A stretch of 64,000 nt of DNA from Escherichia coli. Lineage in GTDB: Bacteria > Pseudomonadota > Gammaproteobacteria > Enterobacterales > Enterobacteriaceae. Of this stretch, positions 25,351-32,674 are shown piece after piece. The position numbers were made by a program, and so were the translations under genes. Under the pieces are notes generated by a model. It saw only the letters and a program-made list of their open reading frames with translations, was not told the DNA's origin and searched no databases. The DNA lies in the NCBI RefSeq assembly GCF_048403405.1, contig NZ_CP183129.1; one strand, 5' to 3'. The stretch's first letter is position 1. Every line of letters begins with the position of its first letter.

Positions 25351-26604
25351 ATGTCAGGATCCAACACTGCAATCAGCCGTCGTCGTTTACTGCAAGGCGC
25401 GGGTGCCATGTGGCTATTGAGCGTAAGTCAGGTCAGTCTGGCTGCGGTCAGCCAGGTCGTGGCGGTGCGCGTCTGGCCTGCGTCCAGCTACACCCGCGTG
25501 ACGGTAGAATCAAATCGTCAGCTGAAATATAAGCAGTTCGCGTTGAGTAACCCGGAACGCGTGGTGGTGGATATCGAAGATGTAAACCTGAACTCGGTAC
25601 TCAAGGGGATGGCGGCACAAATTCGTGCAGACGACCCGTTCATCAAGTCGGCGCGCGTCGGGCAATTTGACCCGCAGACCGTACGCATGGTTTTTGAATT
25701 AAAGCAAAACGTAAAACCGCAGCTGTTTGCCCTTGCGCCGGTCGCTGGGTTTAAAGAGCGTCTGGTGATGGACCTCTATCCGGCCAATGCACAGGATATG
25801 CAGGACCCGCTGCTGGCGCTGCTGGAGGATTACAACAAAGGCGACCTCGAAAAGCAGGTGCCGCCAGCACAAAGTGGTCCACAACCGGGTAAAGCAGGGC
25901 GCGATCGTCCGATTGTCATTATGCTTGACCCTGGCCACGGTGGCGAAGACTCCGGTGCGGTGGGGAAATACAAAACGCGCGAAAAAGACGTGGTATTGCA
26001 AATAGCTCGCCGTCTGCGCTCTCTGATCGAGAAAGAGGGCAATATGAAGGTGTACATGACGCGCAATGAAGACATCTTCATTCCGTTGCAAGTGCGCGTA
26101 GCAAAAGCCCAGAAACAGCGTGCTGACCTGTTTGTCTCTATCCATGCCGACGCCTTTACCAGCCGTCAGCCGAGCGGTTCCTCTGTGTTTGCGCTCTCAA
26201 CCAAAGGTGCAACCAGTACTGCGGCAAAATATCTGGCACAAACCCAGAACGCCTCGGACTTGATTGGTGGCGTGAGCAAAAGCGGTGACCGCTATGTCGA
26301 CCACACCATGTTCGATATGGTGCAGTCGCTGACCATTGCCGACAGCCTGAAGTTTGGTAAAGCGGTGCTGAATAAGCTCGGTAAAATCAACAAGCTGCAT
26401 AAAAATCAGGTTGAACAGGCCGGGTTTGCCGTACTAAAGGCACCAGATATTCCCTCCATTCTGGTCGAAACGGCGTTTATCAGTAACGTTGAGGAAGAGC
26501 GTAAACTGAAAACGGCGACCTTCCAGCAGGAAGTTGCGGAGTCTATTCTTGCGGGGATTAAAGCGTATTTTGCCGATGGGGCGACGCTGGCGAGAAGGGG
26601 ATGA
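25351..26604 (+). CDS. amiC: N-acetylmuramoyl-L-alanine amidase with Tat signal
   Basis: ATG at 25351 gives [19 protein letters not shown] (twin-arginine signal); ORF-track start 25261 is an extension; amidase_3 domain at the C-terminus. Confidence 0.9.
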
Positions 26605-26777
26605 TGTTTTTATTTATTCAATGAATTTATATTTCGTTGAATAGATAACATTTTCATGAATATTAGATGCTGGTTTTGTGACTGATGTCGAATATTTGAA
26701 TGTCGGCTTGAAAAATAAGCCGACCATCTCTTTAATTAAACACAATTCCGTGTAATGTATACACATTAGTTAATCAT

Positions 26778-26850
26778 CTTGTAACTGTTAAATCAGGCAA
26801 GGCAATGTTTGAAGTAATTATTACTTCTGACGTGCCTTGCCTTTTTTTTT
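26778..26850 (+). promoter_or_regulatory. RAT (ribonucleic antiterminator) element overlapping an intrinsic terminator in the leader of the antiterminator gene
   Basis: ttgtaactgttaaatcaggcaagg resembles the sac/bgl/lic RAT consensus; its 3' half (aggcaaggca, 26795-26804) pairs perfectly with tgccttgcct (26833-26842), which is followed by T8. Confidence 0.7.
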
Positions 26851-26861
26851 GGAGTCATGGA

Positions 26862-27686
26862 ATGATCATCGAAAAAGTCATGAACAATAATTGTGTACAG
26901 GCATCGATGAATGGACAGGAGGTTATCATTTCTGGACCTGGCGTCGGTTACAACAAAAAATATGGAATGTCGGTCCCTGAGCATCCGGCTAACCGGATTT
27001 TTTATGTCAGAAATGAACAAAAAAACAAACTCTATAAATTGATTGAACATGTAGATATTGAGTATGTGTTTGTTGCCGAAAAAATAGTGCAATATGCGGA
27101 GAAAAATCTCGAAAAAAATCTCAATCCATCGCTACTATTGATTCTTGCGGATCACATTTCGAATGCAATATCCCGAGTCGCTTCAGGTATACAAATTAAT
27201 AATGTTTTCCTTGATGAAATCAAAGCGTTGTACAAAGCAGAATATGCAATAAGCCGGGATGCATTAACCATCATCAATGAGCAATTTAGCTTTCAACTTC
27301 CGGATGATGAGATTGGTTTTATTGCATTGCATATTTTAAATAACTATGAAAATTCATCTGATTATGAATCGGTACGGATTATTGAATTATCTCAAAAAAT
27401 CACGGAGATTATCGAGGGTATTTATAACCGAAAGGTGGACAGAAGTTCATTTAACTATTCAAGATTTATGATGCACCTTAAGTATTTTTCTAATCGAGTT
27501 TTATGTAATGAAAAGATAAAACAGAAAGATATTGGTGACATCTATGAGCAGTTTCTTGAGAAAGACATCCTGTTACAGCGCGCAATTCATGAAATTGAAA
27601 GGTATCTGTATGCCACTTTTAAATATGAATTAATTTTAGAAGAAAAACTATATCTCTCAATTCGTACCAAAGTATTAATGGACTAA
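26862..27686 (+). CDS. BglG/LicT/SacY-family transcription antiterminator (CAT RNA-binding domain + two PRDs)
   Basis: ATG at 26862 preceded by ggag; N-terminus MIIEKVMNNNCV... aligns to LicT/BglG (MKIAKILNNNVV); the ORF-track start 26805 lies inside the leader terminator. Confidence 0.85.
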   Translation: MIIEKVMNNNCVQASMNGQEVIISGPGVGYNKKYGMSVPEHPANRIFYVRNEQKNKLYKLIEHVDIEYVFVAEKIVQYAEKNLEKNLNPSLLLILADHISNAISRVASGIQINNVFLDEIKALYKAEYAISRDALTIINEQFSFQLPDDEIGFIALHILNNYENSSDYESVRIIELSQKITEIIEGIYNRKVDRSSFNYSRFMMHLKYFSNRVLCNEKIKQKDIGDIYEQFLEKDILLQRAIHEIERYLYATFKYELILEEKLYLSIRTKVLMD

Positions 27687-27717
27687 TTATATATAACATT
27701 TATATGAGATAACCCAC

Positions 27718-29298
27718 ATGAAACAAAAGAAAGCCTGGAGTTTTTTTCAGAGCCTGGGGAAGGCATTTATGTATCCCATTGCTCTGCTAAGTGTATGTGG
27801 CATGATGCTAGGGCTAGGAAGTGGTTTAGCCAGTGATGATATGGCAAAGTTAATTCCATTTCTGGCTATTCCAATAATTAAAACCATACTTGATTTCATT
27901 GTTAGCCTTGGTTTGTTTGCCTTTGTTAATTTACCTGTATTGTTTGCGATAGCAATTCCCTTAGGATTATTAAAAGAGAAAGAGGATAAAGCCTATGGCG
28001 CTTTTTCTGGCTTAATTGGTTTTATGGCGATGCATCTGGGAACGAACTTTTATCTTAAACAGCACGACTTATTGGTCGCTGCTGACCAAATGTCGACACA
28101 TGGGCAAACCATCATTCTGGGGATCCAGTCCTACAATACCAGCGTGTTAGGGGGAATTGTTGCTGGGTTATTAGTCGCCAGCATGTATAAAAAGATCGTT
28201 AATTTACGCATTCCAGAATCATTAGGTTTTTATAGCGGCCCACGTCTGGTGCCTATCATTACACTGATTGTGATGAGTGGATTTGGTCTGATCATTCCTT
28301 TTATCTGGCCGCCGTTTTTCAATCTCTTCATGCTCATTGGCCACTGGATATCAACTTCCGGTCCTGTTGGTTATTTCTTCTATGCAGTTGCCGAACGTGT
28401 GACGATTCCTTTTGGCTTAAACCATCTGGTGACGTCAGTGTTCCGCTTTACGCCAATCGGCGGTTCGGCTGTGATTGGCGGCGAAGAGTATTACGGCACC
28501 CTGAACATGTTTATGGCGTACGTCAAAGAGAATGCGGTCATTCCGCTGGATTTGGCGGGGAAAATGGAGCAGGGCAAACTGATGATTCAGTACGGTCTGG
28601 CTGGTGCTGCACTGGCCATGTATCGCACTGCTCATGCTCAAAACAGAAAGGCTATCAAAGCATTGCTTATTTCCGGTGTGCTTACGGTTATTATTGGTGG
28701 CGTCAGCGAACCGATTGAATTTCTGTTCTTATTTGTCAGTCCGCTGCTGTTTGTCTTCCATGCCTTTATGAATGGATTCGCCAACATGGTCTTGCCATAT
28801 ATGGGCGTGAAGATGGGATTTACTGGCGATCTGATTCAATTTATTAGCTTTGGCGTATTGCGTGGCACAAGAACAGGTTGGCCGATCGCGGTGTGTGTCG
28901 AAGTGGCCTATTTCTTCATTTATTACTTTGTGTTCCGTTGGACCATTCTCAAATTTAACCTGATGACCGTAGGACGTGAAGAGTCCAGTCCTGTCACGCT
29001 GAACGCTCACGAAGAAACTGCAATAGCTAATATCCCAGCTTATGATAAATCAGAGTTGCAGGCAGCGGAGCAAATGGTTAAGGCTCTGGGTGGAAAAGAA
29101 AATATTAAATCACTGGATAATTGTGTCACTCGTTTGCGTTTAACTATCGCAGATATGGGATTGATAGATGAGGCTGCAATTAAAAGTGCCGGAGGGATTG
29201 CGGTTGTGAAACTTGATCAAAATACCTTACAAGTCATTATCGGCACTAAAGTCATCGCCCTGCGTCGGGATATGGATAACTACATGGGGATACGCTGA
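27718..29298 (+). CDS. PTS permease EIICB, glucose/maltose (MalX/PtsG-like) family; no EIIA domain
   Basis: 526-aa polytopic ORF; C-terminal EIIB domain with phospho-cysteine motif NCVTRLRL. Confidence 0.85.
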   Translation: MKQKKAWSFFQSLGKAFMYPIALLSVCGMMLGLGSGLASDDMAKLIPFLAIPIIKTILDFIVSLGLFAFVNLPVLFAIAIPLGLLKEKEDKAYGAFSGLIGFMAMHLGTNFYLKQHDLLVAADQMSTHGQTIILGIQSYNTSVLGGIVAGLLVASMYKKIVNLRIPESLGFYSGPRLVPIITLIVMSGFGLIIPFIWPPFFNLFMLIGHWISTSGPVGYFFYAVAERVTIPFGLNHLVTSVFRFTPIGGSAVIGGEEYYGTLNMFMAYVKENAVIPLDLAGKMEQGKLMIQYGLAGAALAMYRTAHAQNRKAIKALLISGVLTVIIGGVSEPIEFLFLFVSPLLFVFHAFMNGFANMVLPYMGVKMGFTGDLIQFISFGVLRGTRTGWPIAVCVEVAYFFIYYFVFRWTILKFNLMTVGREESSPVTLNAHEETAIANIPAYDKSELQAAEQMVKALGGKENIKSLDNCVTRLRLTIADMGLIDEAAIKSAGGIAVVKLDQNTLQVIIGTKVIALRRDMDNYMGIR

Positions 29299-30482
29299 TG
29301 AATGTTTTTAATACCCCTATCTCCCGTAAAGGAACATATTGCACTCAATGGGACTTTTGTGAGGACAGATTTGGTGTAAAAGATGTATTACCATTTTCTA
29401 TTTCAGATATGGATCTTCCGATACCGGAAGCTATCATCAGGGCATTAAAAAAACGCCTGGAACACCCGATTTTAGGGTACAGCCGTTGGCAGCATGATGA
29501 TTATCTGAATGCGATAGTCAATTGGTATCATCAACAATATAAAACTGAAATAAAACCAGAATGGATCACCTATAGCCCAAGTGTGATGTATTCAATTGCT
29601 AAGGCAATAGAGTTATTAACATTGAATGGAGATAACATTCTCATTTTTACGCCTGTTTATAACGCATTTTTTGATGTAATTAAACAAAGTGGTCGAAATA
29701 TGCTAACAACCTCTTTGAATAAAGAAAATGAGAGAGGCTACGCTATCAACTGGCAAGATTTTGAGCTAAAAATTAAAAGCGCGAAGATGGTGTTATTGTG
29801 TAATCCTCATAACCCGACAGGAACCGTCTGGTCGGAAGAAGATCTCTTCAAAATCGCTGCAAGCTGCGCAAAACAAAAAATCTGGCTATGTTCAGATGAA
29901 ATTCACAGTGATTTTGTTTTTAACCATGGTTTCACGTCCGCGTTAAAAATAAAAAATGACAAAGTAGTGGTGTTAAATTCGATTTCGAAAACATTTAATG
30001 TTCCTGCACTAACAGGATCATATATGATATCCGCTGACCAGGATTTTAATGATAAGTTTAGAACGATATCAAGATATCGCGATTTTGTAAACTCACCATC
30101 TATATTGAATGTGATTGCTACCATTGTTGCTTATAACGAATGTGAAGAATGGTTAAAGTCGTTAAAGGATCATATTGCCTCTAACATTCAATTTACCCAG
30201 CAGTATTTGAATGAAAATATTCCAGAATTGATCGTGAGGTCCGCTGAGGGTTGCTATTTTTCGTGGATAGATTGCTCGGCCATTGGCTATCCCTTTGATA
30301 AATTTTACCGACGATTAATTGATGAAGGGAAAGTGGGTATTATGGCGGGGTATGTTTATGGTACGGAAGGTGAGGGCTATCTGCGTCTGAATCTGGCCTG
30401 CGGTCGAGAAAAATTATATATGGGGCTTGTGCGCCTTGCGAGTGTAATTAAAAATATTAATCAGGAAAAAGAAAATGAATAA
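29298..30482 (+). CDS. MalY/PatB-like PLP-dependent C-S lyase (aminotransferase class I/II fold)
   Basis: 394 aa; N-terminus GTYCTQWDF...DVLPFSISDMD closely parallels MalY; PLP-lysine motif SISKTFN; start overlaps the PTS stop. Confidence 0.8.
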   Translation: MNVFNTPISRKGTYCTQWDFCEDRFGVKDVLPFSISDMDLPIPEAIIRALKKRLEHPILGYSRWQHDDYLNAIVNWYHQQYKTEIKPEWITYSPSVMYSIAKAIELLTLNGDNILIFTPVYNAFFDVIKQSGRNMLTTSLNKENERGYAINWQDFELKIKSAKMVLLCNPHNPTGTVWSEEDLFKIAASCAKQKIWLCSDEIHSDFVFNHGFTSALKIKNDKVVVLNSISKTFNVPALTGSYMISADQDFNDKFRTISRYRDFVNSPSILNVIATIVAYNECEEWLKSLKDHIASNIQFTQQYLNENIPELIVRSAEGCYFSWIDCSAIGYPFDKFYRRLIDEGKVGIMAGYVYGTEGEGYLRLNLACGREKLYMGLVRLASVIKNINQEKENE

Positions 30483-31071
30483 CTCGGAACTTATACATCT
30501 TATTAAACATTTTATGCGTAACGAACATAAGGCCGTTGAAGAGGTTATTGATTCCCCACTTTCTGAAGTCGCTAATTTAATTAAAGTATTACAATCTTGT
30601 CAGGGTAAAGTTGTTTTTATTGGTGTTGGTAAGTCCGGTATTATTGCCAGAAAACTCGCAGCAACATTTGCCAGTACCGGAACTCCCTCGTTTTTTGTTC
30701 ACGGTACGGAAGCGGTACACGGCGACCTTGGAATGGTGGCGAAAGACGATGTTGTTATTCTTATTTCAAACAGTGGTGAGACGGCGGAAATCCTGGCGAC
30801 ACTGCCTAGTCTGAAAAGAATGGGTAATTATTTGATCTCTTTTACCCGCAGTCATCACTCATCGCTTGCGATAAGTTGTGATTTATCTGTTGAAATCCCC
30901 GTCAAAAGTGAGGCGGATAATTTAGGTTTAGCACCGTCATGCTCGTCTACTGTTGTTCTGGTTGTTGGTGATGCGGTGGCGCTTGCACTCTCCGAATTGA
31001 AAAAATTTACTCGTGCCGATTTCGGCTTATATCATCCAGGAGGTGCACTCGGCATTAAAGCAAATTCATAA
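30475..31071 (+). CDS. SIS-domain-only sugar-phosphate isomerase-like protein (resembles the N-terminal half of KdsD/GutQ arabinose-5-phosphate isomerases, no CBS domains)
   Basis: 198 aa; motifs GVGKSGIIARKLAATFASTGTPSFFVHGTEAVHGDLGM, SNSGET and HPGGALG; start overlaps the MalY-like stop by 8 nt. Confidence 0.8.
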   Translation: MNNSELIHLIKHFMRNEHKAVEEVIDSPLSEVANLIKVLQSCQGKVVFIGVGKSGIIARKLAATFASTGTPSFFVHGTEAVHGDLGMVAKDDVVILISNSGETAEILATLPSLKRMGNYLISFTRSHHSSLAISCDLSVEIPVKSEADNLGLAPSCSSTVVLVVGDAVALALSELKKFTRADFGLYHPGGALGIKANS

Positions 31072-31142
31072 TTTCAAAATATAAATACAGTAACCGGTCA
31101 CGCCATCTTTTGGGGTGGCGTTCATTGAAGTGAGTGTCAGCT

Positions 31143-32090
31143 ATGAAAAATGTTCTGGTCACCGTCCCCAGCTTTTCAGCACGCTGTGTTTCCGCCAGCA
31201 AGTTGCTAAGAGAGAATAATTTTAATCTTATTATTAAGAATAATGTGGAGCATCTGCTTAAATCAGAATCCACTGCATTACGAGAATCTATTTGCGCGGT
31301 CATCGCCGGAAAAGATTGTTATCAGGCGGATACGCTATCATTGCTGCCTGGTGTGAAAATAATATCGAGATTCGGGACGGGGATAGACAATATTGATCTT
31401 CGTGCGGCACAGCAATCCGGTATTGTAGTCAAAAATGCGGTTGGGATTAATTCAAATGCGGTTGCGGAATTTATCATTGGACTTATCTTTGCGAGCATGA
31501 GAAATATTCCTGGCAGCTATCATGCGATGCAAAATGGCTACTGGGTTGAGTCGCATGGCTGTGAATTACAAGGGAAACGGATTGGCCTGGTTGGCTACGG
31601 TAATATAGGTAAAACCCTGGCGAAAAGGTTGTCTGGTTTTGATGTTGAGCTTTTAGCTTTTGACAAACAACCCGATTTTCAGGCCGCTGGCAAAGATGGA
31701 GTTCAGTTTGTATCAATTGAAGATATCTTTATGCAGTCGCATGTCATCATTGTTCTTTTACCTTTTTCTCCTGAGCTGGAGAACTTCATTAGTCATAAAT
31801 ATTTGTCAATGATGCGCAATGGTGCTCTGATCATCAATGCCGCAAGGGGAAAGTTGCTGGATGAGGGCGCTTTACTTCAGGTGATTGAAGAACGAAATGT
31901 GTTTGCGGCGCTGGATGTGTTTAGCTCTGAACCGTTGGCGCAATTTAGCCCACTGCTACATGCCAAAAATATCATTACAACGCCGCATATTGCGGCCGCC
32001 ACCGTTGAGTCATACCAGCAAACCGGGATACACGTTGCCCAGTCAATAATTGATTACTTCGCAGGAAGGGAGATAAAAAACGTGTTGTGA
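31143..32090 (+). CDS. D-isomer-specific 2-hydroxyacid dehydrogenase, NAD-binding
   Basis: ATG at 31143 preceded by gaagtgag (ORF-track 31134 is a GTG upstream); Rossmann motif GLVGYGNIGKTLAKRL. Confidence 0.8.
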   Translation: MKNVLVTVPSFSARCVSASKLLRENNFNLIIKNNVEHLLKSESTALRESICAVIAGKDCYQADTLSLLPGVKIISRFGTGIDNIDLRAAQQSGIVVKNAVGINSNAVAEFIIGLIFASMRNIPGSYHAMQNGYWVESHGCELQGKRIGLVGYGNIGKTLAKRLSGFDVELLAFDKQPDFQAAGKDGVQFVSIEDIFMQSHVIIVLLPFSPELENFISHKYLSMMRNGALIINAARGKLLDEGALLQVIEERNVFAALDVFSSEPLAQFSPLLHAKNIITTPHIAAATVESYQQTGIHVAQSIIDYFAGREIKNVL

Positions 32091-32116
32091 GTTCAGCGAA
32101 CGAAGATTTTAAATAC

Positions 32117-32149
32117 AAAAAAACCGCAATTTGTGGAACACATTGCGGT
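32117..32149 (-). terminator. intrinsic terminator downstream of the tRNA-fMet operon (minus strand)
   Basis: On the minus strand, stem ccgcaat/attgcgg followed by T7; lies just 3' of the last tRNA copy. Confidence 0.55.
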
Positions 32150-32168
32150 TTATCAGCATTCTAAGTAT

Positions 32169-32245
<77 letters not shown>

Positions 32246-32279
32246 TCACCGTACTGCTTTTACTTCATCAAATTTTGAT

Positions 32280-32356
<77 letters not shown>

Positions 32357-32389
32357 TCACCGTACTGCTTTACTTCATCAAATTTTAAT

Positions 32390-32466
<77 letters not shown>

Positions 32467-32674
32467 TCCGTGGATGCGCACTATACTCCGCTCGCGTTTT
32501 CATGCAACCTTTTTTTTAACCCGATCACGGATTCGGCATGATTTTGAACAAAAACAAATCACTAAAGCCTATTTTTTGTGCAAAATTTGCGTCAGGGAGA
32601 GGCTGCTCATTTCATTAAACGCGGTGGTTTGTTATCTTCGTTGCGCCTTATTTTTTAACCTGAAGAAGAGAACA

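Follow-up and report, generated by a model that had tools for sequence, protein, structure and literature searches.

Why should Escherichia coli possess a second gene pair of the MalX-MalY kind, and why should this pair be controlled by an antiterminator, when its counterpart in strain K-12 is controlled by a repressor? The question arises from a 64,000-nucleotide stretch of an E. coli genome (contig NZ_CP183129.1 of assembly GCF_048403405.1), hereafter referred to as the window, in which the gene for an EIICB component of the phosphotransferase system (PTS) is followed by the gene for a pyridoxal phosphate (PLP)-dependent enzyme. A sequence-only reading of the window had interpreted this pair as malX-malY placed under BglG-type control instead of that of the LacI-type repressor MalI. 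The pair was observed correctly, but interpreted correctly only in part: the locus is an accessory operon that was known before, and the pair is, to judge from its sequence relationships, not a re-regulated malXY copy, but a horizontally acquired sister lineage of MalX-MalY with ancestral antiterminator control. As a whole, the operon is probably a self-contained catabolic PTS operon that was acquired by horizontal transfer; it is the ortholog of c3405–c3410 of strain CFT073, and its lineage is sister to that of MalX-MalY. New here are the explicit ribonucleic antiterminator (RAT)/terminator element, the view of antiterminator control as ancestral to a distinct cassette lineage that is shared with Firmicutes, and the loss of the surface with which MalY binds MalT.

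Whereas the pair had been treated in isolation, it forms the middle of five co-directional genes, which encode an antiterminator, the EIICB, the PLP enzyme, an SIS-domain isomerase and a D-2-hydroxyacid dehydrogenase, and which are separated by 31, −1, −8 and 71 nt. This locus is the c3405–c3410 operon of the pathogenicity island PAI-metV of CFT073 and as such is found in the literature: the c3405–c3410 block of PAI-CFT073-metV, described as ‘PTS system, maltose/glucose specific’, is present in all four uropathogens compared (PMC2831201), and for strain BEN2908 a genome study of 2026 likens the same five open reading frames (ORFs) to SerA, KdsD, MalY, MalX and BglG (PMC12928451). In CFT073 and in the window, the five genes stand in identical order and adjoin amiC; the antiterminator, EIICB, SIS and dehydrogenase proteins are 96–98% identical (97% for the SIS protein), and the leader with its RAT and terminator is the same but for two bases.

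How close is the pair to malX-malY? The EIICB gene (27718–29298, + strand; 526 aa) and the PLP gene (29298–30482, + strand; 394 aa) overlap as the sequence-only reading had it: at the junction cgcTGATGaat, the stop codon TGA (29296–29298) and the start codon ATG (29298–29300) have one base in common, and GGGGA, 8 nt upstream of the PLP start, is a possible Shine-Dalgarno sequence. The EIICB finds its best match in the MalX model TIGR02004 (540 bits, below the cut-off of 632), with the PtsG and NagE models next, and does not reach the cut-off of the MalX model NF007509 (526 vs 665). Its EIIB domain (residues 412–509) exceeds the cut-off of TIGR00826 EIIB_glc (62.8 vs 45.75), and the EIIB motif LDNCVTRLR (Cys469) aligns to LDNCITRLR of MalX. 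The PLP protein is of the PatB/MalY family and scores above the cut-off of the PatB C-S lyase model TIGR04350 (363.7 vs 340); its closest solved structure is MalY, its catalytic Lys231 aligns with MalY Lys233, and Y121, N172, D200 and H203 are invariant, so that to go by these residues a C-S beta-lyase activity is plausible. In BLASTP, the EIICB is 42% identical to K-12 MalX and the PLP protein 36% to K-12 MalY.

The two loci thus share the order of a glucose-family EIICB gene and a PatB/MalY-family PLP gene, and neither encodes an EIIA. The resemblance of the arrangement to malX-malY therefore holds for the family of the pair, but not for its spacing, as malX and malY lie 9 nt apart, whereas the genes in the window overlap. 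Furthermore, the K-12 locus has a divergently oriented gene for the repressor MalI where the window has an antiterminator with RAT and terminator, and it lacks SIS and dehydrogenase genes. The K-12 locus belongs to the core genome, with malI-malX-malY present in 5423 of 5426 complete E. coli genomes, whereas the locus of the window is accessory (a 5.55-kb island query matches 1689 of the 5426); island-positive strains therefore own both systems. The upstream neighbours of the pair in the window are amiC and the antiterminator gene, and a genome scan found no MalI homologue in antiterminator-type loci, the E. coli representative (L010) included. BglG-type rather than LacI-type control was thus rightly recognized.

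That this control replaced MalI on a malXY copy is at odds with the distribution of the pair. We collected 80 loci with homologs of the PLP gene from contigs of one genome per species, classed their neighbours by tblastn, and built neighbour-joining trees with 200 bootstraps. In 71 of these loci, an EIICB gene lies directly upstream of the PLP gene, often overlapping or nearly abutting it, in Gammaproteobacteria, Bacillota (Firmicutes), Fusobacteria and Spirochaetes (Brachyspira). One type, with the order antiterminator, EIICB, PLP enzyme and SIS isomerase, comprises 12 sequences including the window: those of E. coli, Citrobacter, Atlantibacter and Enterobacter sp. ENT03 among the Enterobacterales, and others from Enterococcus termitis, Clostridium sp., Clostridioides difficile, Massilicoli and Solobacterium. 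A second type consists of MalX-like and MalY-like loci, in which a divergent MalI homolog occurs only in Vibrionaceae and Enterobacterales. The antiterminator type splits off as a clade in 200 of 200 bootstraps for the EIICB and in 134 of 200 for the PLP protein, and the EIICB of the window is 64–97% identical to those within this type, but at most 47% to those of MalX-type loci, K-12 MalX, PtsG and NagE. The phylogeny thus places the pair in the family of MalX-MalY, but on a separate lineage, which has its own antiterminator, its SIS gene and RAT/terminators throughout. Every relative of this type that was inspected (E. coli, CFT073, Citrobacter (L006), C. difficile (L003) and six further loci examined by eye) has RAT/terminators, be it ahead of the regulator gene, ahead of the EIICB gene or in both places, and the RAT motif, with further matches in L010, L011 and L016–L018, is confined to antiterminator-type homologous loci. 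In Citrobacter, the same five genes lie at another chromosomal site, and the genes that flank the Firmicute cassettes (glycosidase, kinase, aldolase), which we had considered as a clue to the substrate, bear no relation to one another across genomes; the cassette is therefore self-contained and travels as a unit.

The same comparison bears on whether the two proteins of the pair work together at all. K-12 MalX is reported to transport glucose and maltose weakly, and the EIICB of the window might accordingly be a redundant glucose/maltose transporter, beside a PLP enzyme that serves sulphur amino-acid metabolism as cystathionine beta-lyase or cysteine desulfhydrase. The in vitro activities of the PLP family that we are aware of are indeed limited to C-S lyase, desulfhydrase and racemase. 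Reports of these activities (PMC6143707, PMC5845896) are what such a separation of tasks would predict, yet the adjacency of the two genes in most loci and across such distant bacteria does not fit it, nor does the sharp separation of the EIICB clade from MalX and PtsG, which suggests a specificity of its own. Since the genes are moreover under a sugar-type antiterminator and not under a sulphur-responsive element, we consider the absence of a metabolic link unlikely.

The antiterminator itself (26862–27686, + strand; 274 aa) belongs to the BglG/LicT family, and the RefSeq start agrees with a GGAG Shine-Dalgarno sequence. Pfam recognizes its RNA-binding domain CAT_RBD (residues 1–55; E = 2.8e-14) and PRD1 (73–160; E = 1.8e-23). 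In an alignment with BglG and the cassette homologs, His98, His157 and His205 are invariant (H101, H160 and H208 of BglG), while the position equivalent to H269 of LicT is occupied by Arg in the window and by Asn in BglG. The protein scores below the equivalog cut-offs of the LicT, GlcT and BglG models.

Its target lies just upstream of its own gene. The leader contains a RAT hairpin (26776–26804, + strand), built of the consecutive segments CUUG, UAA, CUG, UUAAAU, CAG, G and CAAG, whose RAT-type sequence UUGUAACUGUUAAAUCAGGCAA (26779–26800) is the sole match in the 64-kb window, where 0 are expected by chance. It is followed by an intrinsic terminator, a long hairpin with 9 U (26795–26850, + strand; −32.6 kcal/mol, z = −4.55). 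As the 3' part of the RAT, AGGCAAGGCA (26795–26804, 10 nt), doubles as the 5' arm of the terminator, the two hairpins are mutually exclusive, as in bgl, sac and lic. Pairing is conserved in relatives: in six of their RATs, 95% of the cells are paired and the top pair of the upper stem changes from G-C to A-U in two species, and CFT073 and Citrobacter retain the terminator, in which one pair shows a compensatory change, likewise from G-C to A-U. The 31 nt between the antiterminator and EIICB genes contain neither a second terminator nor a second RAT, and thus one leader element governs the whole operon, the regulator gene included. An Rfam scan of 26400–32600 matched three tRNAs and nothing else, Rfam having no RAT family.

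This organization is that of the BglG, SacY, LicT and GlcT systems (E. coli bglGFB; B. subtilis licT, sacY and glcT-ptsG), with which it shares the CAT-PRD1-PRD2 regulator and the three histidines of BglG, the RAT hairpin overlapping an intrinsic terminator, and the adjacent gene for the cognate PTS permease. It differs in having a single terminator, which precedes the regulator gene and has no counterpart ahead of the permease gene, and in lacking a phospho-glycosidase. Its RAT has an A where classical RATs have a U (UUGUAACUG vs UUGUUACUG).

From the gene content, the families and the leader, we infer the following regulatory logic, dependence on the host, catabolic role and order of reactions. 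Transcription would begin upstream of 26776 and stop by default at the leader terminator. In analogy to characterized systems of the BglG family, an idle EIICB would hold PRD1 of the antiterminator phosphorylated and inactive; upon transport of the cognate sugar, it would cease to do so, and the CAT domain would bind the RAT, such that the terminator would not form. Read-through would then extend into all five tightly packed genes and, as these include the antiterminator gene, the circuit would be autoregulatory. Since the island lacks an EIIA gene, unlike the Firmicute cassettes, which include one for EIIA-Glc, the EIICB would receive its phosphate from EIIA-Glc (Crr) of the host. It would import and phosphorylate a carbohydrate, and the PatB-type PLP enzyme and the SIS protein, as an aldose-ketose isomerase, would move the phosphorylated product towards central metabolism. 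These two enzymes would constitute the conserved core after uptake and, in the simplest reading, a short route that ends in a pentose- or hexose-phosphate and releases pyruvate and ammonia as by-products. The dehydrogenase (31143–32090, + strand; 315 aa), a PGDH-like D-isomer-specific 2-hydroxyacid dehydrogenase according to profile matches and cassette comparison, would be a later enterobacterial addition; among the antiterminator-type cassettes, its gene is limited to those of E. coli, Citrobacter and Atlantibacter.

Could the PLP enzyme instead be a second MalY, i.e. a bifunctional enzyme and repressor that sequesters MalT, so that the island ties a sugar to repression of the maltose regulon? 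With MalY as the closest solved structure, the same family and the same arrangement of the gene pair, the idea is an obvious one, and the sequence-only reading had entertained it. In the cryo-EM structure of the complex, the MalY side of the interface with MalT is formed by A84, C181, D182, E185, S218, N219, A221 and R222 (PMC10427625). The corresponding residues of the window protein are E84, E180, E181, F184, L216, K217, K219 and N220, not one of the eight being identical; according to the same structural study, the MalY of Vibrio furnissii, in which just two of the interface residues are changed, cannot repress (PMC10427625). Repression of the mal regulon by the window protein is therefore unlikely: judging by this patch, it is not expected to bind MalT, and the notion of a second MalY is the least probable of all those considered here. 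The patch is not even kept in Enterobacterales MalY orthologs at 69–73% identity, which suggests that MalT repression may be a lineage-specific acquisition in Escherichia. Binding of MalT would then be a narrow and recent addition to E. coli MalY rather than a property of the family.

An observation on the loci L051, L083, L089 and L059 belongs to the same subject: these encode MalY orthologs of 63–73% identity beside MalI and MalX, and the MalT-contact residues are mostly unconserved in them.

The SIS protein (30475–31071, + strand; 198 aa) has a single SIS domain of the KdsD/KpsF kind and a gene that starts within the last 8 nt of the PLP gene. It matches only the SIS half of KdsD (model positions 37–201 of 328) and is devoid of the CBS pair; its score of 193 with TIGR00393 is just under the cut-off of 203.7, and it is near-identical to the ‘phosphosugar isomerase’ of PDB entries 5UQI and 5VHU. 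The title of Mosberg et al. 2011, as it appears in reference lists, names a CFT073 protein as an arabinose 5-phosphate isomerase. This protein, c3406, presumably the product of the CFT073 SIS gene, is reported to have arabinose-5-phosphate isomerase activity. The literature connects the operon to the fitness of uropathogenic E. coli: deletion of c3405–10 reportedly lowers fitness in the mouse urinary tract (Lloyd et al., 2009), and deletion of c3406 reportedly did not reproduce this defect in the work of Mosberg and colleagues, i.e. c3406 alone would be dispensable.

An isomerase of this kind raises the prospect of a biosynthetic operon that supplies arabinose-5-phosphate for 3-deoxy-D-manno-octulosonate (Kdo), lipopolysaccharide (LPS) or capsule in pathogenic strains, a role for which the KdsD/KpsF likeness, the solved structures and the title quoted above can all be cited. 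The cassette is, however, also found in Gram-positives (C. difficile, Enterococcus, Clostridium), in which no Kdo-containing LPS would be expected, and the presence of a transporter and of an antiterminator that responds to a substrate is typical of catabolic PTS operons. The reported lack of a fitness defect upon deletion of c3406 also speaks against this role. We therefore hold a biosynthetic role to be very improbable and return to the catabolic operon.

What could such an operon catabolize? More broadly, the EIICB and the PatB-type lyase might represent an ancient two-gene module for the import of sugar-amino-acid conjugates, in which the lyase replaces the phospho-glycosidase of classical PTS glycoside operons. 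Substrates such as O-glycosyl-serine or S-glycosyl-cysteine from host glycoproteins would be imported and phosphorylated, and beta-elimination would yield a sugar phosphate, pyruvate and ammonia; the antiterminator-type cassette would add an isomerase for the sugar phosphate thus freed. The module occurs in four phyla, mostly in gut or mucosal bacteria. We offer this idea tentatively and would not ourselves bet on it; if true, it would explain both the 30-year-old puzzle of the purpose of MalX/MalY and the urinary-tract fitness effect of c3405–c3410. With a substrate-sensing antiterminator acting on a single clear RAT/terminator, a fusion of the leader to a reporter would provide a simple genetic read-out for the screening of inducers. 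The MalI-controlled K-12 locus, for which we know of no inducer, never offered such a screen.

Several points weigh against the interpretation as a catabolic operon. It is not obvious what a PLP C-S lyase would do in a sugar pathway, and PRD2 of the antiterminator (178–251) is recognized weakly by Pfam (E = 0.0024). Likewise, a scan for consensus sigma-70 promoters upstream of the RAT gave nothing usable, and the AT-rich island could be silenced, like the bgl operon of K-12.

Pursued to its end, the last point would make the operon cryptic cargo, with no contribution in most strains. The GC content of the island, at 39–42% against a backbone of about 52%, and the poor promoter fit this view, as do the sporadic ORFs in which PLP and SIS sequences are fused, suggesting occasional frameshifts. 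By contrast, all five genes are under purifying selection, with dN/dS values of 0.04–0.29 both between the alleles of the window and CFT073 and between E. coli and Citrobacter, which argues for function and not decay, and at least 80% of the island is kept in 1686 genomes; the fitness phenotype reportedly seen in vivo (Lloyd et al., 2009) points the same way. Cryptic cargo is thus quite improbable, somewhat more so than the lack of a metabolic link discussed above, and we maintain that the island probably carries a functional catabolic operon.

The comparison with CFT073 also reveals differences. The window has a divergent allele (87% aa identity; 84–92% nt identity; dS 0.51) of the PLP gene together with the 3' end of the EIICB gene. 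Despite its divergence, this mosaic or recombinant PLP allele is still subject to purifying selection (dN/dS 0.13), and it accounts for the two identity classes into which the island-positive genomes fall, 122 of them matching at 99% or more and 1566 at 90–95%. The divergence spans 29000–30500 of the window; the rest of the island is mostly 94–100% identical at the nucleotide level, with dS values of 0.06–0.22, except for a patch of 90–91% at 27201–27600. On the tRNA side (window 32091–32168 vs L009 24292–24590), the operon of the window directly abuts tRNA-Met, whereas that of CFT073 is bordered by a complete type VI secretion cluster, its tRNA genes lying outside the stretch compared. This shows PAI-metV to be modular, with a PTS module that can exist by itself.

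In C. difficile, the corresponding locus CD3027–CD3031 likewise has the order antiterminator, EIICB, PLP enzyme and SIS isomerase, with identities of 68, 50 and 52% for the latter three, and its RAT is also of the TTGTAACTG type. It differs from the window in having its own EIIA-Glc and no dehydrogenase, and in the position and number of its RAT/terminators, with four tandem 104-nt copies between the antiterminator and EIICB genes instead of one upstream of the antiterminator gene. Its PLP enzyme, MalY-CD3029, is reported to act in vitro as a cysteine desulfhydrase and to be strongly induced in biofilm (PMC6143707). PDB entry 4DGT was considered as a structure of this enzyme and dismissed, as 281 bits are too low for a 50%-identical protein; it represents another paralogue. 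The four units of RAT and terminator (L003, 4974–5392) recur in L016 and L017, with three copies in one strain, and a multi-gate antitermination leader of this type is unusual.

The surroundings of the operon in the window are those of K-12, with the chromosomal order recD, argA, amiC, three tRNA-Met genes, mltA, tcdA, csdE, csdA and fuc genes. The low-GC island (26605–32168), delimited by the GC profile, extends over 5.6 kb from the amiC stop (26604) to the first tRNA-Met gene (32169), in a backbone of about 52–54% GC, and substitutes for the 73-nt amiC-metV spacer of K-12. Its right-hand boundary is formed by the three tRNA-Met (CAU) genes (32169–32466, − strand), metZ/W/V of K-12. Between these and the operon lies a hairpin, CCGCAAT...ATTGCGG with flanking A7 and UUUAU (32117–32153), which by its sequence is a likely bidirectional terminator for the operon and the convergent tRNA-Met genes.

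Upstream of the operon, an inverted repeat, GTGTA-N5-TACAC (26750–26764), stands just before the RAT, and its conservation extends to Citrobacter (TGTGTAGGGTATACACA) and, in part, to Atlantibacter; it may hold a −10 element (TATACA) or an operator. We set aside a CRP-like site at 26677, which with 2 mismatches is no better than 28 others in the window. About 100 nt past amiC, within the DNA of the island, lies a hairpin (GTCGGCTTGAAAAATAAGCCGAC, 26702–26724) whose T tail is poor; in strains that carry the island, it may terminate amiC in place of the displaced K-12 terminator. Finally, some E. coli and Shigella records (P0002, P0004–P0006, P0008 and P0009) contain single ORFs of 550–592 aa with aminotransferase and SIS domains. 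As the PLP and SIS genes overlap by 8 nt (30475–30482), one indel would fuse both, and these ORFs may be either real fusions or sequencing frameshifts.

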